Source: Candidatus Curtissbacteria bacterium
GTDB lineage: Bacteria > Patescibacteriota > Microgenomatia > Curtissbacterales > GWA2-41-24
Length of the DNA stretch: 64,000 bases
NCBI GenBank assembly: GCA_016183325.1
Contig: JACPEV010000003.1
Span: forward strand, 18,000 to 81,999
Reading direction: 5' to 3'
This document shows, piece after piece, positions 29,244-54,100 of this stretch; the first letter of the stretch is position 1; each line of letters begins with the position of its first letter. The notes under the pieces were generated by a model. The model did not search any database and was not told where the DNA came from. It saw nothing but the letters and a program-made list of their open reading frames with translations. A program made the position numbers and the translations under genes.

Positions 29244-31115
29244 TTATATTTTTAATACAGCTAAGAATGCCTCTTGGGGAATATCTACTTGCCCAAAACG
29301 CCTCATTCTCTTTTTGCCTTTTTTCTGCTTCTCAAGTAGTTTCATTTTGCGGGTGACGTCGCCGCCGTAGAGTTTGGCGGTGACGTCTTTGCGGTACGAG
29401 GCGATTGTTTCTCGGGCGATGATTTTGCCCGCCCCCTTCGCCGAGGCTACGGAGGCCGAGCCGATGGCCGCCTGAATCGGTATAGGAATTTGTTGGCGAG
29501 GAATGGCATCTTTTAGTTTTTCGCAAAGTTTTCGGGCAATTTCTTCCGCGCGCACTCGCGGCACTATTTGGGACAGCCCTTCTATCGGTTCGTGGTTAAC
29601 CAGAATATCAAGTTTAACAAGATCGGCCGGGCGATAGTCTGCTATTTCAAAATCTAATGAGGCATAGCCCGAGGTTTGTGACTTGAGCTGATCATAGAAG
29701 CCGATTAAAAGTTCAAGAAGGGGAATTTTCGCTTCTATTTTTAAAAGATTGCCGATTGTTTCAAAATTTTCTTGCTCTCCCCTTTTATCGGTGATAAGCT
29801 TTGACACTACTCCCGAATAAGCCTGAGGAACAAATATCGTAACGCTGGCGATGGGCTCTTTGACGTTTTTTTCAGTCGGGTCAAAATCGCCGGCTTTGTT
29901 GATCAGTTTGTCGTTAACAATGAAATTGACAGAGGGAGAAGTTGTAATGATGTCCAGATCGTATTCACGCTCAAGGCGTTCTTGGGTGATTTGAGCATGC
30001 AAAAGTCCTAAAAAACCAATTCTGAATCCTTGGCCAAGACTGATGGAAGATTCTGTGGTGAAGCTAAGCGATGAATCATTTAGTTTGAGTTTTTCGAGTG
30101 CATCTTTGAGTTTGACAAGGTCTTTGGGGTCTGAGGGGTAAAATGACAGGAAAACAACAGGTTTGGCCGCTTGATAACCAGGAAGTGGTTGAGCCGGCGA
30201 TTTGGGATCGGTGATAGTATCTCCAACTTTTACTTTTGATAAATCTTTAAGGTTAGTTACAACAAAGGCGATCTCCCCGCTGGTTACGTTTTCGACGAAG
30301 TGGGGTTTGGGGGTAAGATAACCTATTTGCAAAATGGTGGCCTTGGCATTCGGGTTGGCCAAAAATAAAATCCGGTCCCCCACATTTATTCTGCCTCCAA
30401 AGACACGGACCGTTGCAACGACACCTTTGTAAGGGTCTAGGGAAGAATCGAAGATTAGTGCTTGGGGTTTGCTCACCCCCGGGGAGCCAGAGCTCACCCC
30501 GGGGGTGTTGCCTGGCGCAGGAATGCGGTCAATTATTGCACGAATAACTGCTTCGACACCCTCGCCGGTTCTGGCGGAGACTTTGATGATTTCTTTTTCG
30601 GAAAATCCAAGAGAGACCAGTTCTTGTGCCGTCTTTTCAATTTGAGCTTGTGGCAAATCAATTTTGTTAATCACCGGAATAATAGTTAAATTGGCTTCAA
30701 GGGCAAGATTAAAATTGGCCAAAGTTTGAGCTTGGATTCCCTGAGTTGCATCGACTACCAGAACTGCGCCTTCTACAGAAGCAAGTGATCGTGAAACTTC
30801 GTAGGAAAAGTCGACGTGGCCGGGAGTATCGATCAAATTCAAAACAAAGTTTTGAATTTGAGGTGAATCGTTAATGGTTAATGGTTCATCGGGAGATTCT
30901 TTTTCAATACGATTAACGATAAACGATGAACGATACACTAATCGTATGGCTTTCAACTTAATGGTGATGCCGTGTTCGCGCTCAAGCTCTAGGCTGTCGA
31001 GAAGTTGTTCTGGGTGATTTTGATCAACTGCACCGCAGATTTCCATGATACGGTCGGCAAGAGTCGATTTACCGTGGTCGACGTGGGCGATGAGGGCAAA
31101 ATTACGAATTTCCAT
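29244..31115 (-). CDS. lepA: elongation factor 4 (LepA), with two short in-frame insertions
   Basis: NFALIAHVDHGKSTLADR, DTPGHVDFSYEV, NKIDLP, and C-terminal LepA domain ending ...[24 protein letters not shown]. Inserts: an about 25 aa segment encoded by TTAACGAT-type repeats (30868-30960) and PAPGNTPGVSSGSPGVS encoded by a GC-rich palindrome (30471-30508). Confidence 0.9.
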   Translation of the reverse strand: MEIRNFALIAHVDHGKSTLADRIMEICGAVDQNHPEQLLDSLELEREHGITIKLKAIRLVYRSSFIVNRIEKESPDEPLTINDSPQIQNFVLNLIDTPGHVDFSYEVSRSLASVEGAVLVVDATQGIQAQTLANFNLALEANLTIIPVINKIDLPQAQIEKTAQELVSLGFSEKEIIKVSARTGEGVEAVIRAIIDRIPAPGNTPGVSSGSPGVSKPQALIFDSSLDPYKGVVATVRVFGGRINVGDRILFLANPNAKATILQIGYLTPKPHFVENVTSGEIAFVVTNLKDLSKVKVGDTITDPKSPAQPLPGYQAAKPVVFLSFYPSDPKDLVKLKDALEKLKLNDSSLSFTTESSISLGQGFRIGFLGLLHAQITQERLEREYDLDIITTSPSVNFIVNDKLINKAGDFDPTEKNVKEPIASVTIFVPQAYSGVVSKLITDKRGEQENFETIGNLLKIEAKIPLLELLIGFYDQLKSQTSGYASLDFEIADYRPADLVKLDILVNHEPIEGLSQIVPRVRAEEIARKLCEKLKDAIPRQQIPIPIQAAIGSASVASAKGAGKIIARETIASYRKDVTAKLYGGDVTRKMKLLEKQKKGKKRMRRFGQVDIPQEAFLAVLKI

Positions 31116-31197
31116 TGTGGATTAGTATAACATCGAGTTAAGGCCAAATTCGCACTAGAAAGAAATTAGGTAACTACTCACCATTACTGATACATCA

Positions 31198-31255
31198 ATT
31201 ATTGTTCGAGGCTAACAGCCGAGAACTAAACTTCTCGCTCGCGCTCGAAGAATAG
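31198..31255. mobile_element. short MITE-like palindromic element (TTATTGTTCGAG...CTCGAAGAATA)
   Basis: ttattgttcgaggctaacagccgagaactaaacttctcgctcgcgctcgaagaata. The ends are reverse complements with one mismatch. Confidence 0.6.
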
Positions 31256-31280
31256 AACCCTATCAATACCTGTGAGTAGT

Positions 31281-31430
31281 TACGAAATTAGTTACTGGAA
31301 ATTTGATAATAGTAATGGAGAGTGGAAAATGGAAAATGACTTAATTAATGCTTTCCAATCTCCCTCAGGGCCGGGCCAGAGGCAAGTTTCGATTACCATT
31401 TTCCAGTTTCTAGTTACCAATCTCTAAATT
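31281..31430. repeat. left arm of long inverted repeat flanking murJ
   Basis: Reverse complement of 33110-33262 at about 85-90% over about 130 bp, including the perfect core ccaatctccctcagggccgggccagaggcaa. Confidence 0.8.
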
Positions 31431-33098
31431 TCACGGGTTTGGCTGTTGGGCGTCGATAGAGGTTGGGGCGGGACTAACCAGGCGGGATGGTAAGGTGATG
31501 ACTTTTTTAACTAAATGATAAAAAATTACGACTTCTTTAACTTTGAGAAGCCAGGATAGAAAAATATAAACTGAAAGACCGATCAGGGTGGCGGTTGCTG
31601 TTAGAAAAATTAATCCGATGGTTCTGGTTGTGTCAAAGACAAGTTGATCTAGAAGTTTCATGGGGATATAGAGTGCAACTGCGGTTAAAAGTGCAATAAG
31701 GCCCATTTTGAATGCTGGAAGAAGTAGCTCTTTTTTGTTAAAAACTACTTTTTTATCCAAAAGATAGAGCAGCAAAATGGCGTTTAAAATGTTGCTTATA
31801 GAGTATGCTAGGGCAAGATAAATGATCGATAGTTTGAGAACTAAAATAAAAATCAGACTTAAGATGATGTTAATACTGACTGTAAAAACATTAACCTTTA
31901 CTGGAGTTAGACTATCTCTTATGGCATAAAATCCTCTCAAAAGAAGAAGACTGACGGCTTGGGCGGCAATACCTATCGAAAAGGCCATCAGCGTTCTGCC
32001 AGTTAAGACTGTGATCTCCCAGGGAAATTCGCGAGCACCGAAGACAAGACGTACAGCAGGAATTCTCAGAATTGCCAGGATGGCAGCAGCGGGCAAAATT
32101 AGAAAGAGAATCTGATGGAAGGAATCGATGAATATCTTTTTAAACTGTTCATATCTTTTGGCATTAAATTCAACAGAAAGTGAAGGCAGAGCTGCCTGGA
32201 CGATACTGCCAGCAAAAAGAGAGATTGGCAAAAGCTGTAAAACTTGGGCGAAGGTAAAGGTAACGATTGAACCTACGGCGACGACTGATGCAAGAGCTAT
32301 GTTTATAATGTCAGAAATTCTAAGAAGAGCAAGAGATATCGACCTTGGCCACATTAAAGCAAATACTTCACGAACATCTTTATTTTTAAAATCCAAGATA
32401 AACGTCACTCGAAACCCTAGGGAAAGAGCGAGTGGCAATTGAATAACCAAATGCAGAAGAGCGCCTAGGACCATACCAACCGCGGGAGCGTAAATGCCCA
32501 AAACAGGAGCTAAAAAAATGATTGAGATAATAATACCGACGTTATAAAAAATCGAGGCAATTGCTGGAATAATGAATCTTTGAAATGATTGGAGAATACC
32601 TGTCAAAAAAATCGAGCCGACAAAGAAAAGTTGGGCAAAAATCATGATACGCATGAGACGGGCGATTAGTGGTTTGGTAAGAGGATCTTGATCCACAAGG
32701 CCAGGAGCAACGATAGGTGCTATAAAATCGGCAGTGGCGACGATTAAAATAGCAAAAATAACAAAAACTAAAAGGGCAGTAGAAATCATGGTGGATGAAA
32801 AATTCCAAGCTTTTTCGAGCTTGTCGTGGGAGAGAAATTTGGAGAAAACTGGAATGAAAGCCAAGGCAATTGTTCCGAAGATCAAAACTTCAAATATGGC
32901 ATCGGGTACGATTGAGGCAGCGATGAAGCTATCCAGAAGATGAATATTATCACCAAAGTAAGAGGCTAAAAGACGGTAGCGGATCAGTCCTAAGATCCTG
33001 GAGATGGCGACCGAGGCAACGATAACAAAGGCGGCAGTAAGGATATTTTCTTGTTTTCTCTTGAAAAAATCAGTGCCATTTTTGAGGATGTACAGCAT
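31431..33098 (-). CDS. murJ: lipid II flippase MurJ (MviN)
   Basis: 555 aa polytopic membrane protein with MurJ N-terminal signature ...ILTAAFVIVASVAISRILGLIRYRLLASYFG... Confidence 0.85.
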   Translation of the reverse strand: MLYILKNGTDFFKRKQENILTAAFVIVASVAISRILGLIRYRLLASYFGDNIHLLDSFIAASIVPDAIFEVLIFGTIALAFIPVFSKFLSHDKLEKAWNFSSTMISTALLVFVIFAILIVATADFIAPIVAPGLVDQDPLTKPLIARLMRIMIFAQLFFVGSIFLTGILQSFQRFIIPAIASIFYNVGIIISIIFLAPVLGIYAPAVGMVLGALLHLVIQLPLALSLGFRVTFILDFKNKDVREVFALMWPRSISLALLRISDIINIALASVVAVGSIVTFTFAQVLQLLPISLFAGSIVQAALPSLSVEFNAKRYEQFKKIFIDSFHQILFLILPAAAILAILRIPAVRLVFGAREFPWEITVLTGRTLMAFSIGIAAQAVSLLLLRGFYAIRDSLTPVKVNVFTVSINIILSLIFILVLKLSIIYLALAYSISNILNAILLLYLLDKKVVFNKKELLLPAFKMGLIALLTAVALYIPMKLLDQLVFDTTRTIGLIFLTATATLIGLSVYIFLSWLLKVKEVVIFYHLVKKVITLPSRLVSPAPTSIDAQQPNP

Positions 33099-33109: not shown

Positions 33110-33262
33110 ACTTGCGAAACTCGAAACCTAGAAATTGGTTACTGGAAACTGGAAATTGGTAATGGAAATTTGCCTCTGGCCCGGCCCTGAGGGAGATTGG
33201 AAATTAGTTAGGAGCTATTTTCCCATTTTCTACTTTCCACTTTCCATTACTACTTTCTCTTT
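33110..33262. repeat. right arm of long inverted repeat flanking murJ
   Basis: ttgcctctggcccggccctgagggagattgg plus flanking ggaaattggtaatggaaa-type sequence. Inverted relative to 31281-31430. Confidence 0.8.
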
Positions 33263-33682: not shown

Positions 33683-33970
33683 ATGAAAAAACTTGCCCGC
33701 CTAGACTCGAATAAATCTGGAAATTCAAACCCTCGCTTGGCGAGGCTGGCCCGCTTGATAGGTTTCTCTTCTTCAGTAGGAATTGCGCTTTCTAGGGTTG
33801 GTAGTATTTTTGCCCAGTCTCCTTCAGCTGCTCCGGCAACTGGCGGTGGAGCAACTAGCGGAGCACTGCCTTCTGCAGGCACAACTGAGTTGACTTATAT
33901 TCTATTTCTGGGAGGAGTAATACTGTTTGTTTTTGGAACCATAAAACTTCTTTTGAGCTTCCGGGATTAG
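33683..33970 (+). CDS. small protein with C-terminal TM anchor. N-terminal part is encoded by a GC-rich palindromic element.
   Basis: 95 aa. 33693-33754 matches the element inside grpE (19924-19963). The C-terminal hydrophobic helix plus charged tail resembles a membrane anchor or sorting signal. Confidence 0.3.
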   Translation: MKKLARLDSNKSGNSNPRLARLARLIGFSSSVGIALSRVGSIFAQSPSAAPATGGGATSGALPSAGTTELTYILFLGGVILFVFGTIKLLLSFRD

Positions 33971-35103: not shown

Positions 35104-35108
35104 AATTT

Positions 35109-35825
35109 TTAAGCGGCGGAGTTTAAGATCTGTATAAAATTCTGGGGATCAAGGCTATTTGTACCTACCAAGGCTCCGTTAATCATCCCTTTTTCCAAAA
35201 AAGATTTTGTGTTCTCGGGAGTAACGGATCCTCCATAGACAACAACATAGTCGCCTTTGGCCAGCTTCGCACGCCCGCTCCGACTCGGAATCGAGGCGAG
35301 CGCAGCGAGGCGAGCTTTTAGCGTTTCGCTTACCGCCTTGGCGTTTTCGGGAGTGTCGGGATTACCGGTACCGATGGCGAAAACAGGTTCATAGGCAACT
35401 ATTTCGATGCCTTGCGGAATTGGGGTGTCTGGTCCCTGGACACAAAAGATGGGAGTAATACCAGCTTTTTGGGCATTTAGAACTTTTTGGACAAGAATGT
35501 CGTCTGTTTCTGCAAAATTCTGGCGTCTTTCGGAATGACCAATGATGGCATAGCTGACAAGACCTGCAATTTGAGAAGCGGCAACTTCACCGGTGTAGGC
35601 GCCTTGTTCAAATCGGGAGATATCTTGTGCTCCCAGTTTCAATGAAGAAGAAAGCGACGCCAGTTTTTGGTTTGCTGAGGCAATAAATGTGGCGGTAGGA
35701 CAAACAATGATTGTGCCGGGAAATGAGCCTGTCCCCTTAGTTATTTCTTCAAGCCAAAGGCTCATTTCGTCCCAAGTTTTGTTGGCCTTGAGATTGGCAA
35801 TAACTAGCGGCAGCCGATCATTCAT
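35109..35825 (-). CDS. tpiA: triosephosphate isomerase
   Basis: VIANLKANKTW, AIIGHSERR, and YGGSVTPEN catalytic and loop motifs. Contains a GC-rich in-frame insert (about 35265-35330) encoding RLAALASIPSRSGRAKLA. Confidence 0.85.
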   Translation of the reverse strand: MNDRLPLVIANLKANKTWDEMSLWLEEITKGTGSFPGTIIVCPTATFIASANQKLASLSSSLKLGAQDISRFEQGAYTGEVAASQIAGLVSYAIIGHSERRQNFAETDDILVQKVLNAQKAGITPIFCVQGPDTPIPQGIEIVAYEPVFAIGTGNPDTPENAKAVSETLKARLAALASIPSRSGRAKLAKGDYVVVYGGSVTPENTKSFLEKGMINGALVGTNSLDPQNFIQILNSAA

Positions 35826-36099: not shown

Positions 36100-36143
36100 A
36101 AATGCCCCAAGTTTCGTCAGTTGCAGGAATTTAAAGAAGTAAA

Positions 36144-36182
36144 CTATACAAATTTCTGACGATCGTCAAAGAACAGTATAAA
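36144..36182. repeat. solo copy of the IS-end palindrome (cTGACGATCGTCA core)
   Basis: ctatacaaatttctgacgatcgtcaaagaacagtataaa matches the ends of the IS at 14309-15794. Confidence 0.6.
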
Positions 36183-36306
36183 TTAAATTTGATACTATGA
36201 TTCGAATCATTAGAACAATTGCTGCTAAACAAATCCAGCAATTTAATAATAAAACAATAGAACAATTATTATAATCTATAAATTTGAAGAGGGAGAAGAT
36301 ATTAGT

Positions 36307-37182
36307 TTATATTTTTGTATAGTATTTTTCATTTGTTCCATAAACAGTACAGGTATGTGCACCAACAGACAAACTTAGCTTAGGGACAGGGTATGATTTG
36401 TCCTTAATGGAATAAAATTTCCAATCTTTACTTAAATCTTCTATAGCGGCACTAGAGCTCGGCTCACCCCAAACTACAAGTGTTCCCGGGACAAATTTCT
36501 GATACTCTTTATATTCGTTTCTATGCTCTTTTAAATATTTTTCTGCACATTCAATTGCTTCTTCAGGAGAATAGTCAATATTGGCTATAGATAATTCTGG
36601 ATCGTTAATCTTAAAGTGCTCGGGCAAATCCCAATAAACATTACAAGTTTGAGCCCCAACGTAAAAATTGGGACTAAAGGGAAATTTTTCGGGCTTGGTT
36701 TTATGATTCATATACATGAAGTAGCAGAATTTGTCTTCTTTGCTATATTTGCTGTTTTTTTCTAAAAGTTGTGAGCAAGAATAAGACTCTTTTCCCGATT
36801 CTTTATCATCAATAATTAGACTGCTCAAGATGGGATATACGATTTGGTTTTCAGCTACGAAATCCTTTACGCATTGCTTAGCTTGTTCAGGTGTAACCTC
36901 TTTATATTCGTCTTTTAAATAGAGATCCTTATATTCACAAGTATAACCTCCTAACACACATCCAAAATTATCACTCCCTCCTCCGCAATAAGCAGCTAAA
37001 TTACACTTATCTTTAGGACAACCATTTTCCATTGAACAGTAAGAGAAAAGTACGTTGGGAACTGGGTTAGTATAGAGGATTTGTCTAGAAATGGATCTAG
37101 AGTGGATGAAATAAAAGATTCCACCTGTTACAAGTAGTCCTATTACAACCAAGATTAAAATCGGAGCAAAACCGCGGCGCAC
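36307..37182 (-). CDS. secreted protein of unknown function (MRRGFAPILIL signal-peptide family), GTG start
   Basis: GTG at 37180-37182 gives MRRGFAPILILVVIGLLV..., the same N-terminus as the ATG-initiated paralog at 39204-40250. Cys-rich mature region. The track ORF extends further upstream only as stop-free read-through. Confidence 0.55.
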   Translation of the reverse strand: MRRGFAPILILVVIGLLVTGGIFYFIHSRSISRQILYTNPVPNVLFSYCSMENGCPKDKCNLAAYCGGGSDNFGCVLGGYTCEYKDLYLKDEYKEVTPEQAKQCVKDFVAENQIVYPILSSLIIDDKESGKESYSCSQLLEKNSKYSKEDKFCYFMYMNHKTKPEKFPFSPNFYVGAQTCNVYWDLPEHFKINDPELSIANIDYSPEEAIECAEKYLKEHRNEYKEYQKFVPGTLVVWGEPSSSAAIEDLSKDWKFYSIKDKSYPVPKLSLSVGAHTCTVYGTNEKYYTKI

Positions 37183-37225
37183 AATTTTATAATTGCACTT
37201 TTTACGGCCGTTGACAATGGAGAAC

Positions 37226-37489
37226 ATCTGTGTGTATAATTGTGTGTATATGAGAACAAATGTAATTTTACCTGATGATTTAATTGCAGAAATAGATAAG
37301 ATAGCGGGCGCCAGAAAAAGAAGTAAATTCTTAGAAGAAGCCGCACGTGATCGGATTGAGTCAGAAAAATTAATGGATGCTTTTGAAAAAGCTCGAGGTA
37401 TTTTGAAGAACGATCCCAGATTTGCCACCAGAGCTAAAGTCCGCAAGTATATTCGTGACTTCAGACGCAAAAATAGTTACAGATTCTAA
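37226..37489 (+). CDS. vapB: ribbon-helix-helix (CopG-like) antitoxin. Track ORF starts at 37193.
   Basis: MRTNVILPDDLIAEIDKIAGARKRSKFLEEAARDRI RHH motif. Followed 2 nt later by a PIN gene. Confidence 0.55.
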   Translation: MCVYNCVYMRTNVILPDDLIAEIDKIAGARKRSKFLEEAARDRIESEKLMDAFEKARGILKNDPRFATRAKVRKYIRDFRRKNSYRF

Positions 37490-37491
37490 TC

Positions 37492-37869
37492 ATGCCCGTG
37501 GTTAGATATCTTCTTGACTCCGACGTAATCATAGAATATCTAAAAGATAACAGAGAAACAGTCACGCTTATAAATAAGACTGGTGGTAAAGGGTTATCTT
37601 GCAGCGTTTTAACTATTATTGAGGTTAAACGAGGCGTGAGACCAAAACAAGAAGCTACTTCAGCAGATTTATTCAAAATAATCAAAGCTTACCCTGTGGA
37701 TAAACAGATTGCAGAACTTGCTGTTGCTTTTGCACGGGAATGGCAGGGAAAGGGCAAATTTTTGCAGCTAGTTGATGCTTGCATTGCCGCAACTTGTGTT
37801 ATCTACGATTTGACTCTGGTTACGTATAACAAGCGTGATTATCCGATGAAAGAGCTGAGGATAATTTAG
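37492..37869 (+). CDS. vapC: PIN-domain toxin (VapC family)
   Basis: MPVVRYLLDSDVIIEYL...IAATCVIYDLTLVTYNKRDY. Confidence 0.7.
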   Translation: MPVVRYLLDSDVIIEYLKDNRETVTLINKTGGKGLSCSVLTIIEVKRGVRPKQEATSADLFKIIKAYPVDKQIAELAVAFAREWQGKGKFLQLVDACIAATCVIYDLTLVTYNKRDYPMKELRII

Positions 37870-37929
37870 TCGAGGAATTTGTCCACCTAATCTTACCTCA
37901 AGTCTTTTCATCCGCCAGTTGGCGGAACG

Positions 37930-38060
37930 ACTTGAAGAGCGATCTTTGGCGGATCAGTCTATAAACTGAAAGGTGGAGAGGATTTGGTTGAATTAAAATC
38001 GGAGCAAAACCGCGGCGCATACTTTTATCTTGGCAGTTTTGGCGCAGTTTTACAAATTCT
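37930..38060. repeat. gene-end mini-repeat: 3'-end motif plus promoter/5' start of the secreted-protein family, without a gene body
   Basis: ctgaaaggtggagaggatttgg (the QILSTFQF-encoding 3' motif) is joined directly to attaaaatcggagcaaaaccgcggcgcat (the MRRGFAPILI start) and the conserved upstream cttggcagtttt promoter region. The same arrangement recurs at 38820-38905. Confidence 0.65.
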
Positions 38061-38138
38061 GACATAACTACTCGCGTAGTTACTTACAAAGTAATGGATA
38101 TTGACAAATGTAATGCAATTTGTTAAATTTAATGCATT

Positions 38139-38390
38139 ATGAGCTATATTGTTTCCATCACCTCACAAGGGCAAATTAGCATCCCGGCAAAAATACGTCG
38201 AGAGCTTGGATTGGATAAAAAGAAAAAGGCATTAGTGACGGTCAAGGAAGGAAATATTGTCGTGGAACCTGTAAAGGATTTGCTGGAACTGCGAGGTTCA
38301 TTAAAAACTACTATAAAAGCGACCCGTAAACAAATTCGTGATGCGTTCGAAACGTATCTGGGGAAAGAAGCTGTTAAAGGGATAAGGTGA
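38139..38390 (+). CDS. AbrB/MazE/SpoVT-type antitoxin
   Basis: MSYIVSITSQGQISIPAKIRRELGL swapped-hairpin motif. Overlaps the downstream PIN gene by 4 nt. Confidence 0.6.
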   Translation: MSYIVSITSQGQISIPAKIRRELGLDKKKKALVTVKEGNIVVEPVKDLLELRGSLKTTIKATRKQIRDAFETYLGKEAVKGIR

Positions 38391-38770
38391 CGAGAACTGT
38401 TATTGACGCAAATGCTTTCCTAAGACTTCTATTGGACGATATCCCAAGCCAAGCAGATCAAATTCAAAAGATTCTTCTTGAAGCGAAGAAAAATAAAAAG
38501 GAGTTGTTAGTACCGCAGATTATTATTTTTGAAATAGTGTTTGCTCTCGAGAAATATTATCATTTTCCTAAACAAAAAATTGTAGATAATATTAAGTCAA
38601 TTTTAGCAATGAGGTATTTTAAAATTCAAGACAGAGAAATCTTTAAAAGGGCAATAGATCTTTTTGATAAAAAGAATGTTTCATTAACTGATTGTTTTCT
38701 TGTGTATTTTGTACAGCACAACGATGCAAATCTCTTCAGTTTCGATAAAGATTTAAAGAAATTACAGTAA
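38387..38770 (+). CDS. vapC: PIN-domain toxin (VapC family)
   Basis: MTRTVIDANAFLRLLLDD...LTDCFLVYF...FSFDKD. Confidence 0.7.
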   Translation: MTRTVIDANAFLRLLLDDIPSQADQIQKILLEAKKNKKELLVPQIIIFEIVFALEKYYHFPKQKIVDNIKSILAMRYFKIQDREIFKRAIDLFDKKNVSLTDCFLVYFVQHNDANLFSFDKDLKKLQ

Positions 38771-38819
38771 AAGATAAGCTTCATTACTCTTTAAAGTAGA
38801 TTAGTCGGGGGATTGATCC

Positions 38820-38905
38820 TACTTTTAGCGGATCAGTTAATAAACTGAAAGGTGGAGAGGATTTGGTTGAATTAAAATCGGGGCAAAACCGCGGCGCATA
38901 CTTTT
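38820..38905. repeat. gene-end mini-repeat, second copy
   Basis: ttagcggatcagttaataaactgaaaggtggagaggatttggttgaattaaaatcggggcaaaaccgcggcgcatac is near-identical to 37930-38010. Confidence 0.65.
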
Positions 38906-39203
38906 ATCATGGCAGTTGGAGAGAAAAGAGTCAAAGTTTCAATGAGTCTATGAAATACCAAAACCACGCAATAGCGTGAAAGTGGTATGTGGACCGTTTT
39001 GGTTGCTAGGGTAAACTCAGTGATGAATCTTACAGCACATTGTCATTGCGAGGAGTCCTTCGACTTCTCTCAGGACGAGAAAGCAATCTAATACATAAAA
39101 AATTGATTCGTTTCACTCGCGATGACAAATGTAATTATCCAGTTTAAAGATCTAAAGGTGAAGCAGATTTGTTTCTAACTTAATGGGATTTCTCACTAAA
39201 AAG

Positions 39204-40250
39204 TTATTTAAGTCTTTGATATTTCACCCCATCCCAATCTAATAGTTCTTGATTAAAATCATAACTAGTAGAAATAGGTCCGCCAGACTCACTTTTTGCA
39301 TTCAATAAATTATTCTTACATGAATAAAAACCACTCTCTGAGAAATCGGAGTGATTCCACTCGAAAGTTGACTGTCCATAGTCTGAAAGAGTTGTTCCCT
39401 CTTGAAATTGTATACTCCAATAACCCATTTCAGCTCCATTTGGTCCAAGTCCAACCTCATGCTTATCTACCGAACGAAAAGTAGAATTACTAAAAAGAGT
39501 ACAAAAATCTGAATTATTTGGTCCGATCTGGGAATTTAAAAATTTAAAGGTGGAGAGGATTTGGTGAAAAACTCCAAGAATATCATTCTTTTTAAGATAA
39601 GTATCCCAATAATGAATGACGATCACTATCAGTGAGCCATCAAAATTGCCGGGTATATAGTATGTTTTTGTTATCTGCGATGTATGATTTGATTCATAAA
39701 TACAGAGTGGATGGGAGACTTGCACCATTGCCCTGACATTTCCTATTATTACTTCGTTCGGTTCATTCAAGTAATATATACCGGCTGGTCCTTGGCAGGC
39801 TATTGGCGTCTCGCTTAGGTTAATTTTCCAGAAAGAACTTTTGGGATTAAATAATTCTGCTTGCGTAATTTCCTTTTCTCCATATTTTTTTCTAAATTCT
39901 GTTGTTTCTACTGATATTTCTCCATAAACTCTGCTAGGTTGATCTATTTCATAATAAATTTCTGCATTTCGGGCTTCATTTTCGAAATCAGCATTAGTGT
40001 TACTAATGATTTTAAATTGCCAAGAATCAGGGTATTTCAGGGTAAATTTTCCCACTGTATTTGTATATGTCTTCCAATTGGCCCCGATTGAATCGGGGTT
40101 AGCTGTTTCGTCGGTTGAAGATGGGGACGGTGATGTTGTTGATTGAGGTTGTGATTGAGTTTTAGGTTTACTTTGCTGATATAGAAAGGCTCCGATTACA
40201 GAGATAGCAACTATGATTAGAATTAAAATCGGGGCAAAACCGCGGCGCAT
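39204..40250 (-). CDS. secreted protein of unknown function (MRRGFAPILIL / YTNxxGKFxLKYPxxW family) with internal QILSTFKFL motif and C-terminal extension
   Basis: Signal peptide, S/T/P-rich linker, WKTYTNTVGKFTLKYPDSWQF start of the mature domain. Paralogous to 36307-37182 and the partial gene at 63577-64000. Confidence 0.6.
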   Translation of the reverse strand: MRRGFAPILILIIVAISVIGAFLYQQSKPKTQSQPQSTTSPSPSSTDETANPDSIGANWKTYTNTVGKFTLKYPDSWQFKIISNTNADFENEARNAEIYYEIDQPSRVYGEISVETTEFRKKYGEKEITQAELFNPKSSFWKINLSETPIACQGPAGIYYLNEPNEVIIGNVRAMVQVSHPLCIYESNHTSQITKTYYIPGNFDGSLIVIVIHYWDTYLKKNDILGVFHQILSTFKFLNSQIGPNNSDFCTLFSNSTFRSVDKHEVGLGPNGAEMGYWSIQFQEGTTLSDYGQSTFEWNHSDFSESGFYSCKNNLLNAKSESGGPISTSYDFNQELLDWDGVKYQRLK

Positions 40251-40495
40251 AATTTTATCTTGGCAGTTTTCGGGAAACTTTACAAACTATACCCCAAATT
40301 CTTTTGGTATACTGAGAAACTATAAGTATTCACCTTTTTCCAATGTCATCCTCGCGAAAGCGAGGATCCAGCTTCAATTAAATAGATTCCCGCATTCGCG
40401 GGAATGACAAGTGGGGGGCGGGAATGACAAATTAACTAAAAACTTAAATTTGCCATCAATTTCTTTTGGTATACTGAGAAACTGACTTTCCCAAG

Positions 40496-42376
40496 ATGGA
40501 CATTTTGAAAGATTTAAATTCAGACCAGATTGCTGCAGTTAAGCAAACCGACGGCCCGGTTTTAATTTTAGCAGGTGCTGGCAGCGGAAAAACAAGAGTT
40601 TTGACATATAAGGTTGCCTATTTGATTCAAAAAGGGATCAGACCGGAAAATATCATTGCCATGACATTCACCAACAAAGCGGCCAATGAGATGAAAGAGA
40701 GGGTCTATCGTCTCCTCCACCTCCGAGGCTTCGGCCGTGAGCTCAGCCGAATCGGTGAAAGCTCCTCACACCTCGGAGGTGTTGCCGGCGGTGATTCACC
40801 ATTTGTTGGGACTTTTCATGCTTTTTGTGCAAAACTACTCCGACTTGACGGCAAATTTATTGGAATACCATCGGGCTATTTAATTTATGACGATGACGAC
40901 AGTCTGAGTTTAATTAAAAAAATTATGTCTGATAACAATATTTCGGTTAAAAATTTCAGGCCGAGTTCAATTTTGAACGCTATTTCTTCTGCAAAAAGTG
41001 AATTAATCGGGCCGACCGATTACATACAGTTTGCAAGAGGTTACTTTGCTGAAACGGTTGCCAAAGTTTATGAACCATATCAGGCGACTTTACATGAAAT
41101 AAATGCTTGCGACTTTGATGATCTTTTAATGCAGACAGTTAGACTTTTTCGAGAATATCCAAATGTCCTTGAAAAATGGGCAGTGCGATTCCAGTACGTA
41201 TTGGTTGACGAATATCAAGACGTAAATACCGCTCAATATGTTTTAACTAAACAACTTGCAAGTGTCCATGGTAATCTGACAGTGGTCGGTGATGCATCCC
41301 AGGCGATTTATTCTTTTAGAGGAGCGGATTTTAGGAATATTTTAAACTTCGAAAGAGACTTCCCTAAGGCGAAGGTTTTTAATTTGGAGCGAAATTATAG
41401 ATCAACTCAGACAATACTTTCGGCTGCAAATGTAGTGATTGCTAAAAACAGTTCACATCCGATTTTGAAACTTTGGACAAAAAACGATCAGGGTGATCTG
41501 ATTAGTACTTACAATGCCCACAATGAAGTCGATGAGGCGAATTTTATTGTTGAGATGATAGTTTCTTCGGGTAAATCGTTGTCTTGCTTCGCTGTACTTT
41601 ACCGAACTAATGCTCAATCAAGAACGATTGAGGAAGCACTCCTTCATGCCAATATTCCCTATAAACTGTACGGCGGGGTAAGTTTCTATGCCAGAAAGGA
41701 AGTCAAAGACGTCTTAGCTTACTTAAGATTGATTGCCAACCCACGCGACAACGTTTCCAAAAATCGGATTGAGAAATTGGGTAAGAAGCGGTATGAGAAA
41801 TTTGAAGAGCTGGTTAAGAGATTCCAAGGGTCGGACCCTCAAGAAAGAAAAGGTTCTAAAAAGGGTCCGACCCTAAATAGGTTGCCACCGATAGATCTTA
41901 TTGATAAAGTTTTGGCGGCAACTGATTACCTAGCACTGATCGATGATGGTTCGGAACAAGGATTATCTCGAGTTGAAAACGTAAAGGAATTACGATCTGT
42001 GGCTGCTGACTTTGAAAATTTGGCAACTTTTTTGGAAGCGGTTACTTTGATGGAGGGTAAGGTTGCCCCTGATAAATCGTATGAGGCCGAGTCTGACTCG
42101 GTGAAGTTGATGACTTTGCATGCTGCAAAGGGATTGGAGTTTGATAATGTTTTTATCATTGGTATGGAGGAAGGACTCTTTCCCCATTCGCGCAGTATGC
42201 TAGACGTGGCGCAGCTTGAGGAAGAAAGAAGATTGGCTTATGTGGGCATGACGCGGGCAAAGCAAAAATTGTACCTAACTTATGCCACAAACCGCCTTTA
42301 TTTTGGAACCCAAAGTTCCAATTTAGTTTCGCGATTTGTGGTGGATATACCGGAAGAATTAATAACCCCCATCTAG
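40496..42376 (+). CDS. pcrA: UvrD/PcrA-family DNA helicase
   Basis: Walker A AGAGSGKT, motif VDEYQD, GDASQAIYSFRGA, and C-terminal YVGMTRAK. 626 aa. Contains a GC-rich palindromic in-frame insert (40713-40781) encoding LHLRGFGRELSRIGESSSHLGGV. Confidence 0.85.
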   Translation: MDILKDLNSDQIAAVKQTDGPVLILAGAGSGKTRVLTYKVAYLIQKGIRPENIIAMTFTNKAANEMKERVYRLLHLRGFGRELSRIGESSSHLGGVAGGDSPFVGTFHAFCAKLLRLDGKFIGIPSGYLIYDDDDSLSLIKKIMSDNNISVKNFRPSSILNAISSAKSELIGPTDYIQFARGYFAETVAKVYEPYQATLHEINACDFDDLLMQTVRLFREYPNVLEKWAVRFQYVLVDEYQDVNTAQYVLTKQLASVHGNLTVVGDASQAIYSFRGADFRNILNFERDFPKAKVFNLERNYRSTQTILSAANVVIAKNSSHPILKLWTKNDQGDLISTYNAHNEVDEANFIVEMIVSSGKSLSCFAVLYRTNAQSRTIEEALLHANIPYKLYGGVSFYARKEVKDVLAYLRLIANPRDNVSKNRIEKLGKKRYEKFEELVKRFQGSDPQERKGSKKGPTLNRLPPIDLIDKVLAATDYLALIDDGSEQGLSRVENVKELRSVAADFENLATFLEAVTLMEGKVAPDKSYEAESDSVKLMTLHAAKGLEFDNVFIIGMEEGLFPHSRSMLDVAQLEEERRLAYVGMTRAKQKLYLTYATNRLYFGTQSSNLVSRFVVDIPEELITPI

Positions 42377-42390: not shown

Positions 42391-43571
42391 ATGATCTTTA
42401 AATCTATCCCCCGGCAAGTTAAAAATCTGGGACTGGTGAGTCTTTTTAATGATATCGCTTCTGAAATGCTTTATCCGGTGATGCCGATTTTTTTAACGCA
42501 AGTGTTGGCGGCTCCAGTTGCTGTGGTGGGCATTATTGAAGGCGTGGCAGAGGGATCTTCTGCAATTTTTAAGACTCTATTTGGCTTGTGGTCGGACAAA
42601 CTTGGCAAGCGGAAAATATTTGTAGTTTTTGGCTATCTTTCTTCGGCGATTGCTAAAGTTATTATTGCTTTATCGATAATTTGGCCATGGGTATTTTTGG
42701 GAAGATTTGTTGACAGATTTGGCAAGGGAGTAAGAACAGGCGCGCGAGATGCTTTGCTTTTGGAAGCGGCTGATAAGAACAATAAGGGGTTGATTTTTGG
42801 CTTTCACAGATCCATGGATAGCGCCGGCGCGGTTTTGGGACCACTGATTGGTTTTTTCCTGCTTTTAAGTTTTGAGGAAAATATCAGATTGATTTTGTAT
42901 TTAGCCGCGATTCCCTCTCTTTTTGCTTTATTCTTTTTGATTTTCATCAAAGATGCCAAAAAAAATGAGAAGAAGAATTTGAGGTTGAGTCTAACTTTTA
43001 AAAATTTACCTAGTCAATTCAAATTATTTCTCTTAACTGTCGCGATTTTTTCGCTGGGAAACAGTTCTGATGTTTTTTTGATATTGCGAGCACAAAATTT
43101 GGGTTTAACTTTGAGCTTGGTGATTCTTGCTTATGTTATTTATAACTTTGTCTACACTTTTGCTTCAACACCCGCCGGAGGTTTCTCGGACAAAATCGGG
43201 CCTAAAAAGATTTTTTGGTGGGAATTTTAATTTATATTGCAGTTTATTTGGGATTTGCATTTACCAATAGTGCCTTTTATGTTTGGCCGCTGTTTGCAAT
43301 TTATGGATTTTATATTGCGCTGACAGATGGAATTGCTAAGGCATTAGTCGGGTCGTATATTGAAAAAGAACAAGCAGGAACGGCGTATGGGGTACTGCAG
43401 ACGACGATTTCCATCTTTACACTTTTGGCATCGGTGATTGGCGGATTTTTGTGGCAGGTAATCTCACCGCAAGCGACTTTTTTATTCGCAGCTGGTTGTG
43501 CCTTGTTAGCTTTGGGATTATTTTTAGCTTATGGCAAGATTAGGGTAAAAGAGGATTTGATTGAACATTGA
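42391..43571 (+). pseudogene. MFS transporter split by a frameshift in a T6 run (about 43205-43212)
   Basis: The track ORF 42391-43230 ends ...DKIGPKKIFWWEF*. The +1 frame continues VGILIYIAVYLGFAF... (43215-43571). One extra T in aagatttttt|ggtggg would restore a single 12-TM MFS protein. Confidence 0.6.
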
Positions 43572-48439: not shown

Positions 48440-49024
48440 TTGGTTTCTTCTTGTCGGACTTCGTCAGCGAGGATGACAGTTTTGGGTTATCATGAAATGA
48501 TGGAGGATAACCAACCGCAAAGTTTAGAAGATTTAAACAGGTTATCTCAGCAAAAACAAGAAAAGGAGGCTTCTGTTTTTGGCTATATTATTATCAGCCT
48601 TATTATCCCCCCGTTTAGTACTGCTTGGGCCATGTATCGCGCTTGGAAAAAAGGTGTTTTATATCGATTTGTTCCGGTATTAACAATTGTCTATACGATT
48701 CTTTTTGCACTGTATAGTTGGCTTCTTTTGTCTTCTCCGGGTGCAGTTTCGAGTGTTTTAGGTAAGAATCTACTGAAACAACCAGAAGTACCCAGCGGCC
48801 AAAATACAATATTTGTGATTATGACTGTAGTTTTGACAATAGCCGGGATTGTGGGCGGTTTTTATCTTAGAAATAAAGCGCAGAAAGAAGATACGCTTCC
48901 AACTGTTATGATTTTAGCTCTAATTTTCATTTTGCTATTGCAGTTTTGGGTCGGATTTTCAGAACTTTCATTTGTGGGCTCGATAATAAATCAGTCGGTC
49001 GGGAATATTTATGAAGGTTTGTAG
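48440..49024 (+). CDS. membrane protein, unknown function
   Basis: 194 aa with four hydrophobic helices. Confidence 0.4.
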   Translation: MVSSCRTSSARMTVLGYHEMMEDNQPQSLEDLNRLSQQKQEKEASVFGYIIISLIIPPFSTAWAMYRAWKKGVLYRFVPVLTIVYTILFALYSWLLLSSPGAVSSVLGKNLLKQPEVPSGQNTIFVIMTVVLTIAGIVGGFYLRNKAQKEDTLPTVMILALIFILLLQFWVGFSELSFVGSIINQSVGNIYEGL

Positions 49025-49243
49025 TCAAATTTTGTAGAGCAAAATGCCGTTTTGGGATTTTTCTGGTTTTTTGGTGGGGAAAGGGATGGTTTTGTCGGTG
49101 TTGACGATGATGCGAGCTCCACGCTTGGCGTTTTGATAGACGAATTTTTCAAATCTGGGCATGGTTTTGGCGCGGCCGTAGACGAAAATGACATCGGCTT
49201 CTTTGAGATCGGCTTGCCAGAGGTCTTTGCGAATCACTATCAC
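49025..49243 (-). pseudogene. duplicated 3' fragment of the methyltransferase gene at 49998-50600
   Basis: 49041-49200 is near-identical to 50010-50170 (...DLWQADLKEADVIFVYGRAKTMPRFEKFVYQNAKRGARIIVNTDKTIPFPTK...). The duplication ends at a GC-rich palindrome (49241-49270). Confidence 0.7.
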
Positions 49244-49270
49244 ACCTCCGAGGTGTGAAGAGCTTTCACC
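49241..49270. repeat. GC-rich palindromic element (cacctccgaggtg family), intergenic copy
   Basis: cacacctccgaggtgtgaagagctttcacc. Related copies lie inside pcrA (40713-40781) and inside the large helicase (53103-53140). Confidence 0.7.
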
Positions 49271-50600: not shown

Positions 50601-50607
50601 TTATGGT

Positions 50608-50800
50608 AGCTTCTCGACCTCGTCCTTCGACACATTCGATATCAGCCTTCACCTTCGGTGAATCTGATATATCAGAGGAGCGTCATTGAATCGAAGATTC
50701 AAGACGACCTGCTGATATAAACTCAGTGCAAGCAAGCTCAGGACTTCGCTCGAAAAAGAAAGAATTTTATTGTTCGAGCGTTAGCGAGAACTATTAAATA
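50608..50800. mobile_element. long-form MITE (inverted orientation relative to 58711-58912) plus an adjacent short-form fragment
   Basis: The core tcgacacattcgatatcagccttcaccttcggtgaatctgatatatcagaggagc...gacctgctgatataaactcagtg is the reverse complement of 58755-58865 at about 85%. It is followed by ttattgttcgagcgttagcgagaac. Confidence 0.65.
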
Positions 50801-51053
50801 ATAATTCTTTCTTCTGCCTACTAAAATCTTTTAATTGATGTTCTCGATCTCTAGCCTGAATTATTTCTGTAAATTCTTCTACGTAACAGAGCCTTTTGAA
50901 ACCATGTCTGGATGTAAATTTAGACCCTTTACCAATTTTATGCTGTTCCATTCTTTTTTCTAAATCCCAGGTAATTCCGGTGTAATAAAAACCGTCTAAA
51001 CATTCAATAATGTAAACATACCACTTCCATTGTTTATTTAATGAACTTCTCAC
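50781..51053 (-). CDS. small GIY-YIG nuclease-superfamily protein
   Basis: WYVYIIECLDGFYYTGITWDLEKRMEQH is a canonical GIY-YIG N-terminal motif. 90 aa, stand-alone domain. Confidence 0.75.
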   Translation of the reverse strand: MRSSLNKQWKWYVYIIECLDGFYYTGITWDLEKRMEQHKIGKGSKFTSRHGFKRLCYVEEFTEIIQARDREHQLKDFSRQKKELLFNSSR

Positions 51054-51153
51054 TTCGTTCGAAGAATAATATGTATTTGTTAAATTTTAGCTAGGCTGAA
51101 CGGACAGATGGAATTATATCAGCCCTCGCTTCGCTCGCCTGATGTAACAGCAT

Positions 51154-54100
51154 TTACTGTATTTTTGCTAAAGAAAAAGGACAAATGCTGTTATAGGCGC
51201 AGTAAACACAAGCCGGTTCGCGGCCGAAATATTTGGGGTTGGCGACAAAAGAATTATTTTTGGTATCACGGCGGATTTTGTCGGCAGTTTCCAAAATCAA
51301 CTCTTCGGTTTTTTCTAAATCTTTTTGAGTGGGAGTGTGTGCTCCTTCGATGCCGGTTTCCAAGAAGTTGAGGACGACCTTTTCGGGAACGATCCTGTGG
51401 CGCTTAAAGTAGTAAAGCGCGTAGATAGCAAGCTGAATTGATTCTTTAGCCTGAGAATCGGCTTTGTCTTGATCGATGTTTTCGGAAGATTTGTAATCGA
51501 TGATGGTGATTTTCCCGCCAGGTTTTACATCTACCCTATCAAAACGACCGGTAATCGTGACACCTTTTAGCGCGAAATCGAACCTTGCTTCGATAAGGCT
51601 GGGCAGATCTTTTGATTTTGATTCTCGTTGCCAAAAATTTTGGAGGGCAAGTTTGCCTTGAGATTTTCTTTTTTCTTCATGTTCGATGGTTAAAAATCCT
51701 TCACTATCCCAAGCGTTTTCGAAAATTTCCAAAAGCTGGGGAAGGGTTAAAATCCTGCCGCTTTTTTTGGCCCGGAAAAATCCGGCAACGGCGCTGTGGA
51801 GAGCGGCACCGTATACGATAGCGTGATGCCTGAGAGTAGGAATTCTAAGGATATGAATATAGCGGTATTTGTAGGCACACGTTAGATAATCGTCGATTGA
51901 ACCTTGGGTAAGTTTTAAAACATCGACATCGAAAAGTAAAGTTTGGGTTGTGCGGGTAGGTGTTGGTGCAAATTTTTCGATTTTTTCCAGTGGTGAGAGT
52001 CTGGCAATCTCCGCGTCTGATTTGATCTTATCTAATGCTTCCAGCACAAACGGGGATATTTTTTTGACTCTGGCTCCACCAATATCGCGAGACCAGGAAA
52101 AGTAAAGCAAATCTTTAGCACGAGTCATGCCGACATAGAAAAGGCGCCTTTCCTCTTGTTGGTGCCAATCACCGATGGGCAGAGTTTCTTTGATCAAGAC
52201 TTCGGGAACCTCGATGGCATCACCTCGCGCGCGTGTTGGGAAACGATCGGCAACTAAATTGACCAAAAAAACGACCGAAAATTCCAAACCTTTGGCGCCA
52301 TGGACAGTCATTACATTGACGGCATCCACTTCTGGATCAAACTGGACTGTGGCAGGGTCATCACCAGCCCCCCGAATCGCTTCGAGATAATCGACGAATT
52401 GGGTGACTGATTCGACCTTAGCTACGTCAACAAATTCTTTAATTTTATCGAAGAATTTTGCAATATTCTGGATTTTAAGCTGATTTTCAACGCCGCCTTG
52501 CCTTTCTAACTTTTTGAGATAACCGGTTGTTTTCAAAAAGCCGTAGGTAACTTTGCCTACATTTTCGCGCCTGGAGAGTTTAATTGACTCATCAAGATCT
52601 AACAAAAGTTTTTCGATGATGGCTTTGGACTCTTCTGATAGGTCTAAATCTGATATTCCACTGTCATTCTGGCCCTTCGGCAGTGAGCTGCTCAGGACAG
52701 TCGAACTGCTTGTCCAGAATCCGCTTTTTTTGATTCTGGAGTCGTCGCTTCGCTCCTCCCCAGAATGACGGTGTTGGGGTGTAAGTCTATCTAGATTTTT
52801 TAGAACATAATAAAGTGAGCGATTTTTTCTTTTGGCGTATGAAGCGAGTTTGATGGCATCGGCAGGCGGCATTTTGTAAACATCAGATGTACTGAGATTA
52901 AAAAGGTTAAGACTATCTTCAAAATTGGAAATGGCTGTTAAGAAAGAGATTAGGAGATTTACTTCTTCCTGCTGGTATAGGCCTGATGAACCGACAAATT
53001 TATGGGGAATACCCTTCATATTAAGAGCGCGCAAGAAATGGTCGGCTTGGGCGTTGGCGCGAACAAGAATGGCGAAATCGCGATATGAATAACCATCTCT
53101 GCCACCTCCGAGGTGTGAGGAACTTTCACCTCGGAGGTATTTGCTTCTTTTAGCCATTAACTTTTCAATTTCTGCAGCCACTAGATCAGCTTCTTCTGAA
53201 ATTGTATCGGCGAAAATTTCCTGAGGGGATAAGCCATGCCTTATTCCAAGCTCACCCCGGGGGTGTAACCAGACAGCCTTTAATTTTTTATCTATTTTGT
53301 TTTGGACTTCCAGCCGGTCGGGGTCATTGTGGCGGATGAGACGATAAGCACTATTTAAAATGGATTGGGTTGAACGGTAGTTTTGGTTTAGAACCACTTG
53401 GTGGGCTTTTGGATATGTTTTTTTAAACTCTAAAATGTTTGAAATTGCAGCGCCGCGGAATTTGTAGATTGAATTATGAACAACAATATTGTTTGCAATA
53501 AAATTATGCGTTTTTTCAATTTCAAGATCATAGACTGTTAGTGTTTTTTCTTCTTCTGTGATTTCAATTATTTCATCATAATAAACCCGATTATTAACAA
53601 CTATCGGTACACGATGGCCAAGAACTAGATTACTTGCTGGCATTATCAGGGCTGGCTTGCTCTGAAAGCTTGCAAAACCTAAAGCGAATTTTGCCTCTAG
53701 AAAACCACCAGTAAAATCAGTTATTTTTTGTGCGAGTTTGCCCAGATTTAACAAATCGCTGCTTTGAATTCTTAATCTTAGGCCTTTTTTTGCTTTCTGG
53801 AGTTGATAGCCCGCATCTTGCAATAGTTTAATTATCTTAGGATTAGTGGTCTCTAAGTGCAGTGTGTGGGCTATCAATGGGCTTTTAAGAATTTCCTTGG
53901 ATTTGGAGTGATAATTTCTTGAACAGATTTCCAAATTAATTTTTATTCTTCGACTTGATCCTCGAGTGACTGCATTTAAGGTATAGTGAGAAGAATTGAG
54001 GTCTATATGTAAGTCTTGAGCCAGTTTAGCAGCGTTAGCATAACTATCAATATCTTTGTATAACTTCATGAGGGAATCTCCTTTTATTTCAATTCCAATC

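Follow-up and report, generated by a model that had tools for sequence, protein, structure and literature searches.

Candidate families of short hairpin-forming repeats, mostly in-frame within genes, in a Candidatus Curtissbacteria genome

Genomes of the Candidate Phyla Radiation (CPR), or Patescibacteria, are small and gene-dense and are usually held to be poor in repeats. How do short palindromic repeats come to lie inside the housekeeping genes of one of its members? The DNA that raises this question, called here the window, is a stretch of 64,000 nucleotides (GC content 40.5%, about 82% coding) from contig JACPEV010000003.1 of Candidatus Curtissbacteria assembly GCA_016183325.1. A first-pass annotation had described in it several families of GC-rich palindromes, some between genes and others translated in-frame as short peptides within them, and had compared these with the Rickettsia palindromic elements (RPEs). 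All the sequences that it quoted were found in their places, and Pfam agrees with its gene names: LepA (29244-31115, minus strand), PcrA/UvrD (40496-42376, plus strand), a large helicase that proves to be an AddA-like helicase-nuclease of 1410 residues (51154-55386, minus strand), GrpE, triosephosphate isomerase (TIM) and NusA; Pfam also assigns DnaK, DnaJ, MurJ and a LytR-family protein. Scans of the window against Rfam and for tRNAs returned no match, so the elements are not known RNA families.

We consider it rather probable that these sequences represent several families of short non-autonomous hairpin-forming repeats, copied to many places in Curtissbacteria genomes and lying mostly in-frame within genes. 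Such units, about 27-112 nt long, would spread by copying and would survive in-frame in permissive loops; that copies are found mostly in genes reflects the large coding fraction of the window. The material comprises 64 kb of the host genome and flanks of up to 10 kb from its relatives. Comparisons were made with orthologues in the PDB, with 232 Curtissbacteria orthologues (P0001-P0232) and with three syntenic relatives (L087, L088 and L089); the orthologue sets include 120 Curtissbacteria PcrA proteins (592-671 residues), 112 helicases and 100 diverse LepA representatives. A second genome scan, with a PcrA alignment as query, was dominated by generic UvrD motifs and returned one Curtissbacteria locus (L001) among 80.

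Hairpin families in the window

The best-defined units consist of a 13-nt palindrome (six nucleotides, a central S/W position and six more), a spacer of 7-31 nt, and the reverse complement of the palindrome. In family A (CACCTCSGAGGTG) the complete unit, CACCTCCGAGGTG-AAAGCTCCTCA-CACCTCGGAGGTG, is 37 nt long, made up of the 13-nt palindrome, an 11-nt loop and an exact reverse complement. The copy at the first pcrA site (A1, 40718..40781, plus strand; translated as HLRG-FGRELSRIG-ESSSHLGG) has the left arm CACCTCCGAGG, a nested hairpin, the loop GAAAGCTCCTCA and the right arm CACCTCGGAGGTG. The nested hairpin is 27 nt long (40729..40755, plus strand; CTTCGGCCGTGAGCTCAGCCGAATCGG, read as FGRELSRIG) and is missing from the orthologous copy of L088 (P0057); one element thus lies inside another. 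The helicase copy (A2, 53103..53139, minus strand; YLRGESSSHLGGG, residues ~750-761) has a 12/13-bp stem around its 11-nt loop. A third copy, which has lost its left arm (A3, 49241..49270, minus strand), lies where a truncated paralogue copy (49018-49240) has its 5' breakpoint; the first-pass annotation had correctly placed it in family A but had called it intergenic, whereas it sits in-frame in the truncated gene copy and reads GESSSHLGGV in the remnant's frame. Among these three copies at unrelated loci the loop agrees at 10 of 11 positions.

Families B and G follow the same plan of palindrome, loop and reverse complement. The family B arm in lepA is CACCCCSGGGGTG, and the doublet it forms where the G domain meets domain II (B1, 30474..30507, minus strand; NTPGVSSGSPGVS) has a stem of 11-12 bp; a singlet in the helicase (B2, 53249..53266, minus strand; LHPRGEL, residues ~705-716) is read in a frame different from that of the lepA copy. 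Family G (AGGGTCSGACCCT), a hairpin absent from the first-pass annotation, occupies a second site in pcrA (41827..41874, plus strand; GSDPQERKGSKKGPTL), where AGGGTCGGACCCT, a 22-nt loop and AGGGTCCGACCCT make a perfect 13-bp stem. Family D is a longer composite. Its helicase copy (D1, 52661..52772, minus strand; RHSGEERSDDSRIKKSGFW...GQND) has terminal inverted repeats, GTCATTCTGG and CCAGAATGAC, around two sub-hairpins; it is an in-frame insert, as had been proposed, but measures about 41 rather than 37 residues. A second composite (D2, 60522..60613) and a single unit upstream of nusA (13559..13593; GTCATTCTGG-GGAGCGAAGCGACT-CCAGAATC) are both intergenic, and a 67-nt D stretch is 93% identical between 13533-13599 and 60571-60637, 47 kb apart.

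Recurrence of these families was tested against dinucleotide shuffles. The family A palindrome has 4 matches in the window (at most one mismatch) against 0.02 expected, that of family B 3 against 0.00, and the D repeat 5 against 0.11; family C, described below, also repeats, so the recurrence first claimed for families A, B, C and D holds. The window has 23 hairpins whose stem reaches 11 bp or more, against 7.2 +/- 2.3 in block-wise shuffles that keep local composition, and 7 with GC-rich stems against 0.9. Folding of the individual copies relative to shuffles gave z scores of -3.2 (A1), -4.7 (A2), -4.2 (B1), -4.4 (D1), -2.8 (D2) and -6.05 (G), while A3, B2, both family C copies (C1 and C2), the tpiA insert, a 30-nt lepA insert and the nusA tail fold no better than shuffles. 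GC-rich stretches of the dnaK C-terminal tail and of dnaJ were considered as further elements and set aside: they share 11-mers with the tpiA insert, fold no better than shuffles, and are attributed to Gly/Ala/Pro-rich composition.

The families also recur outside the window. A pattern scan of metagenomes (Joint Genome Institute, JGI) found family A at four more distinct loci, each within a long open reading frame (ORF); the hosts are transketolase-like (with a net gain of 13 residues over human transketolase), TsaD-like, Fic and DUF72-like. Family A is thus represented by three copies in 64 kb and by four loci on metagenome contigs without genome assignment, and one more Curtissbacteria species (L001) has its arms as well. 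Other Curtissbacteria contigs show the plan of palindrome, loop and reverse complement in AAGGCCWGGCCTT (LepA of L001), in CACTCCSGGAGTG (a glycosyltransferase) and in CAAACCSGGTTTG (twice, in a methyltransferase and in RecF); an inverted-palindrome hairpin with a less conserved spacer characterizes A, B, G and three families in L001 and L083. Scans of viral contigs for families A and D gave no match, and a scan for the G architecture matched nothing but unrelated tandem direct repeats, on viral contigs of 59% GC. Per 100 kb, palindromic-arm hairpins number 5.8 in Curtissbacteria loci (a value somewhat inflated because some loci were retrieved by the family A pattern) and 0.47 in non-CPR control loci (1.27 Mb), with none in 92 kb of other CPR loci; in the Curtissbacteria loci 8 of 9 lie inside long ORFs. 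Generic hairpin density does not discriminate, because high-GC controls are equally dense, and the palindromic-arm architecture alone does.

Arms and loops behave differently between species. At the second pcrA site the window, L087 and L089 have near-identical G arms within PcrA proteins of about 75% identity. Their loops have diverged, the central base pair shows a compensatory flip (G..C against C..G), and the site is empty in L088. Family D likewise has conserved arms and a diverged interior between the window and L087, and L089 carries G at two loci (pcrA and the helicase) with common arms and unrelated loops. One explanation is that only the arms matter, the 13-nt palindromes being host-selected recognition sites whose density is under selection: uptake signals, restriction/modification or repair sites, or binding sites of dimeric proteins. 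The DNA uptake sequence (DUS) of Neisseria and the uptake signal sequence (USS) of Haemophilus occupy permissive, frame-biased protein positions, often as inverted pairs. Such an origin would suit arms in which every codon position is conserved between species, next to loops that drift, the two dissimilar G copies of one genome, the strict frame preference of family A described below, and hosts that include genome-maintenance genes (pcrA, the AddA-like helicase, RecF). We nevertheless regard it as unlikely. At least six distinct palindromes are present, none of them above about 0.08 per kb (4-5 family A palindromes in 64 kb), so that, in contrast to DUS and USS, no one motif dominates at about one per kb; the family A loop is conserved in three unrelated window copies, and family D is a composite of 90-110 nt. 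The second arm, moreover, is always the reverse complement of the first, central base included, which points to the logic of a hairpin and not to the counting of sites.

Inserts in host proteins

Are these segments insertions or ancestral protein sequence? Alignments with PDB orthologues, Curtissbacteria orthologues and syntenic relatives place them in variable-loop gaps and not in conserved ancestral sequence, and bear out in-frame, lineage-specific inserts in pcrA, lepA, tpiA, the helicase and a small membrane ORF. Relative to solved structures, none of which includes an insert, PcrA has 19 extra residues exactly at A1, LepA has extra residues at three places that include the B1 site and a second GC island, and TIM has about 11-18 at its GC island. 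The insert at the LepA G/II junction is of 9-17 residues, and three LepA segments exceed the modal length of the 100 representatives by 22, 8 and 10 residues. In the helicase the columns of B2 (residues 705-716), A2 (750-761) and D1 (870-910) are gapped in most of the 112 orthologues. An AlphaFold2 model of PcrA of mediocre quality (mean predicted local distance difference test score, pLDDT, 67.7) gives pLDDT below 50 to residues 79-99 and 450-458, the two inserts. The helicase also contains an intein of about 360 residues (53473-54552, residues 279-638; Pfam Intein_splicing and Hint), starting CLPPGT..., which is present in only 10 of the 112 Curtissbacteria orthologues.

Empty sites occur in many orthologues, and the same protein sites are occupied by different families in different species. 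Judged by eye, about 30% of the 120 PcrA proteins have an empty A1 site, and most of the others hold different segments of 15-50 residues there; the second PcrA hotspot carries family G. At the LepA G/II junction the window has B, L001 has AAGGCCWGGCCTT, L089 has a D-like element and L087 has an empty site; at the helicase site of D1 the window, L087 and L001 all carry D-type elements, and L089 carries a G element. D-related peptides (RHSG...QND, VIPAKAGIQ..., VIASEAKQS...) appear at the hotspots of many orthologues. The motifs VIPAKAGIQ...DQVGNDK, VIASEAKQSR...DSTRDDK and RHSGERSDSRI...GQARMT recur in PcrA, helicase and LepA proteins of many Curtissbacteria and are translations of hairpin repeats of the GTCATT...AATGAC type; motifs of the VIPAKAGIQ, VIASEAKQS and RHSG types are frequent among 'hypothetical proteins' from many phyla.

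The remaining copies and inserts vary in strength. Family C is defined by two exact collinear blocks, of 12 and 18 nt, common to 19924-19960 and 33691-33754. Its grpE copy (C1, 19924..19960, minus strand; ASLAQDESRRAS; z = -0.3) is a member of the repeat family, as the first-pass annotation had it, but not evidently an insertion, its 12 residues being matched by 12 in L087. The copy with a longer interior (C2, 33691..33754, plus strand) does form the in-frame N-terminus of a small membrane ORF (33683-33970), adding about 19 residues relative to syntenic relatives, and is bounded by a 9-nt direct repeat, CT(T/G)GCCCGC, the only possible target-site duplication seen. The tpiA insert (35259..35312, minus strand; RLAALASIPSRSGRAKLA) is of 54 nt, or 18 residues, between helix 6 and strand 7; it is missing in L087, L088 and L089, so a lineage-specific in-frame insert stands. 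It resembles family C by eye (GCCCGC..GACTCG..GGCGAG), and its hairpin is imperfect and weak (z = -1.5). A window-specific, GC-rich insert of 30 nt in the C-terminal domain of LepA (29430..29459, minus strand; SASVASAKGA, 10 residues), without a significant hairpin, sits between GGC and GGC and is missing in both lepA-bearing relatives, L087 and L089. The imperfect GC-rich palindrome reported at the nusA 3' end (12112..12165, minus strand) covers the last ~18 residues of NusA, a C-terminal tail; it is weak (z = -1.1) and not confirmed as an element. An AT-rich hairpin at lepA site 1 (30867..30920, minus strand; IVNR...LTINDS) is shared with L087 and L001 and would for that reason be an older insertion of like kind. 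AT-rich hairpins behave in the same way both there and in many PcrA proteins (HSSQFT...PSTVN), so GC-richness, taken at first as a general trait, is what drew attention to these elements and does not define them.

Every delimited insert is a multiple of three nucleotides long and stop-free in the host frame; four cleanly bounded window-specific ones measure 27, 30, 54 and about 57 nt, and no window gene is interrupted out of frame by an element. A major facilitator superfamily (MFS) gene (42391-43571), split by a frameshift into two overlapping ORFs and intact at 394 residues in L088, was considered as a gene broken by an element and rejected: the break lies at a T-run (~43210-43225) where no hairpin is found, and the split reflects either a sequencing error or a pseudogene. 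That strong hairpins lie within essential genes might suggest that the segments are never translated, being taken out of the mRNA or passed over by the ribosome in the manner of the byp elements of Magnusiomyces mitochondria or the gap of T4 gene 60. The GC clusters of yeast mitochondria and the byp elements are GC-rich palindromic mobile clusters of AT-rich genomes that also land in coding sequence; byp elements, organellar and eukaryotic, are skipped by ribosomes and need not be in-frame. The Curtissbacteria inserts, by contrast, are all in-frame and stop-free, and the only frameshifted window gene (MFS, about 43215) breaks without a hairpin, which leaves bypass as the weakest of the explanations considered and a scarcely credible one.

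The frame itself is less easily explained. All six intact family A copies in coding sequences translate as HLRGE(S/R)SSHLGG, and with A3 included seven of seven use the same one of four stop-free frames (HLRGESSSHLGG); for the six independent intact loci, the chance of all matching the first is ~(1/4)^5. A query of a protein database with concatenated family A peptides, as a test of frame usage, returned no candidates. Selection might act on the peptide, a useful short module (such as HLRGESSSHLGG or GSDP...GRTL) acting as a flexible linker or interaction tag, and hydrophilic, Gly/Ser-rich peptides in one frame at all seven family A copies and at both G loci are what it would predict. We consider this very unlikely: third codon positions of the arms are conserved and the central residue varies (P/R), family B occurs in two reading frames and family C in both orientations, D copies lie in intergenic DNA, and the PcrA insert segments are of low model confidence. 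The pattern suggests a constraint at the nucleotide level beyond what a peptide would require.

Possible mobilization, breakpoints and neighbouring repeats

If the units are copied as mobile repeats, the mechanism may be sketched as follows. Elements would sit at permissive surface loops or linkers, their length a multiple of three and free of stops, and, transcribed and translated along with the host gene, would yield short peptide inserts, most of them hydrophilic. The arms would be kept constant as recognition sites of a mobilizing or maintaining activity specific for hairpins or single-stranded DNA (REP/RAYT-like, IS200/IS605-like, or something else), a role suggested by their conservation across species and by the two G copies with unrelated loops. 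Existing hairpins may be preferred targets of insertion, which would explain both the hotspots and the nesting.

Several observations weigh against mobile repeats. No gene for a transposase, for a RAYT (REP-associated tyrosine transposase) or of IS200-like type was found among the ~40 ORFs scanned with Pfam in the window and in the relatives' flanks, and neither a target-site duplication nor a common flank or target motif was found at six family A loci. The single frame of family A is not obviously predicted by neutral insertion followed by filtering. The unrelated loops of the two G copies of L089 also count here, copying of arms being less easily accommodated than copying of whole units, as do the hairpins of listed items that are not significant (C1, C2, tpiA, the lepA 30-mer, nusA). 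Loop conservation in the metagenome copies of family A is partly built into the search pattern, and the exact family A pattern has no match among GTDB species-representative genomes, which implies that the host genome or its close kin are not represented there.

Hairpins may also bear on rearrangement. A duplicated lepA 3' fragment (26961-27146) ends, via an 8-nt microhomology, exactly where the 30-nt lepA insert starts, and the truncated paralogue (49018-49270 region) ends inside A3, so that both partial gene duplications in the window break exactly at a GC-rich insert; because the two breakpoints lie at elements, they suggest that the hairpins are recombinogenic. Microhomology at inserts is equally what one would expect if hairpins arose locally, by replication template switching or quasipalindrome correction in fast-evolving loops under low constraint, with their similarity due to convergence or gene conversion and with no transposition. 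The same loops are indeed hypervariable and hairpin-bearing in most orthologues, the flip in family G is compensatory, and neither transposase nor target-site duplication came to light. Near-identical 37-nt units, loop included, at unrelated loci and genes, the 93% identity of the D repeat across 47 kb, identical arms in species with ~25-33% protein divergence, and sites that are cleanly empty in close relatives all stand against this origin, which we hold to be quite unlikely.

The idea of mobile repeats can be carried further, to a possibility that we advance tentatively and regard as doubtful: a long-lived population, in Curtissbacteria and perhaps other CPR lineages, of miniature REPIN-like elements (repetitive extragenic palindromic, REP, doublets forming hairpins) that live mainly inside genes, their arms held by a hairpin-specific enzyme, that insert preferentially into earlier hairpins or replace them, that are read in a preferred frame, and that set off rearrangements. 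Selfish DNA and ultra-compact genomes would then coexist in a way not seen before, with steady variation of protein loops at fixed 'landing pads'. More generally, if dozens of hairpin elements persist in housekeeping genes, they would be a second, independent case of the RPE phenomenon in a very distant lineage and with a different architecture. They would also point to an undiscovered hairpin-specific mobilization system in CPR, account for part of the length variation of CPR proteins and for some 'hypothetical' peptide motifs, matter for annotation, alignments and phylogenomic markers such as LepA, and perhaps fragment assemblies and cause rearrangements in metagenome-assembled genomes, while offering a test case for the tolerance of protein loops and the recruitment of selfish DNA.

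Other repeats and rearrangements lie nearby. An island of ~7.6 kb (about 21600-29240) has no counterpart in the syntenic relatives, in which hrcA, CYTH and lepA stand side by side. It contains PIN toxins, GNAT acetyltransferases, an aldo-keto-reductase fragment and, within a patch of 50% GC (22.6-23.9 kb), an HTH_17 protein. Within the island a chimeric junction joins the lepA 3' fragment (26961-27146) to a copy of a NUDIX-like fragment (27139-27247, equal to 21404-21512) at the microhomology ATTTTGCC. The ORF at 21034-21588 is NUDIX-like (it has GGKMEYGETIEEAIIREIKEE) and is not CYTH, which fills the corresponding position in relatives; the actual CYTH gene is at 27303-27860. The palindrome TACTCTAATACTCTAGAGTATTAGAGTA, at five intergenic sites of the island (22267-28491), is probably a shared operator of toxin-antitoxin-like cassettes. 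A second block missing from relatives, of ~4 kb (36270-40290, from the thioredoxin/TIM genes to pcrA), holds four copies of a 64-94-nt repeat over the 5' ends and upstream of paralogues (N-termini ATGCGCCGCGGTTTTGC... and MRRGFAPILILI), among PIN-domain genes. Intergenic repeats include an inverted pair of ~117 nt, 82% complementary, on either side of murJ (31316-31432 and 33123-33239), where the lepA-murJ and murJ-rpsT spacers measure 315 and 265 nt against 0-134 nt in relatives, and an inverted pair of 102 nt (89%) whose copies, separated by 8 kb, flank the helicase region (50627-50728 and 58757-58858), with internal hairpins that include a D-like GTCATTGAATC...GATTCAAGAC unit. An AT-rich intergenic palindrome with a perfect core, TATAC..TTTGTGACGATCGTCA..AGTATAG (14305-14348, 15750-15793 and 36139-36182; two copies lie around dnaJ), resembles an operator or a terminator.

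Relation to known systems

A full-text literature search, incomplete in its coverage, found no account, for CPR, Patescibacteria or Curtissbacteria, of in-frame elements that are palindromic or resemble REPs or MITEs, in agreement with the earlier statement that such elements are not a described feature of CPR genomes. In the sources available we likewise found no description of hotspot turnover, nesting, single-frame bias or association with breakpoints. Three known systems invite comparison.

MITEs (miniature transposable elements with inverted repeats; Correia/NEMIS, ERIC, BOX and cyanobacterial families) are non-autonomous, have terminal inverted repeats and occasionally make in-frame fusions with host ORFs; they normally come with target-site duplications and with a parent insertion sequence (IS) of matching ends (PMC10969869). 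Family D resembles them in its terminal inverted repeats, GTCATTCTGG...CCAGAATGAC, and A, B and G have 13-nt arms. Neither a target-site duplication, apart from the possible one at C2, nor a parent IS was found here, and the in-frame intragenic copies that are the exception in MITEs are the majority in the Curtissbacteria material.

RPEs are palindromic repeats of ~100-150 bp specific to Rickettsia (Alphaproteobacteria), in families 1-10; as summarized in PMC10969869, they lie in-frame in unrelated housekeeping ORFs, where they encode a conserved peptide compatible with the fold and function of the protein, and also outside genes (Ogata et al. 2000, 2002). The parallel drawn by the first-pass annotation survives as far as behaviour goes: copies here are likewise in-frame in unrelated genes, are translated as a conserved peptide, fall into several families and occur between genes too. 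It does not extend to membership of the same family, the units here being of 27-112 nt, mostly hairpins of 34-60 nt with 13-nt palindromic arms, and in a CPR lineage; this distinction is drawn from size, architecture and host taxon, not from alignment to RPE consensus sequences. Turnover of families at one site and nesting, both documented here, do not figure in that summary of RPEs.

The closest architectural match is to REPINs, which consist of two inverted short palindromes with a less conserved spacer, form a long hairpin with compensatory changes, and decay into singlets (PMC3116915). They are extragenic, ~70-110 nt long and present in hundreds of copies, along with a flanked single-copy RAYT, and are maintained by vertical descent in related species (Bertels and Rainey 2011; PMC3116915). 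The Curtissbacteria elements share the inverted doublets, the diverging spacer, the compensatory change, the vertical persistence between relatives and singlets that look like decayed remnants; they differ in being mostly intragenic and in-frame and much smaller, with arms of only 13 nt, and no RAYT was found among the ~40 ORFs scanned. On this comparison, the elements appear to be RPE-like in behaviour and REPIN-like in build, in a new lineage.

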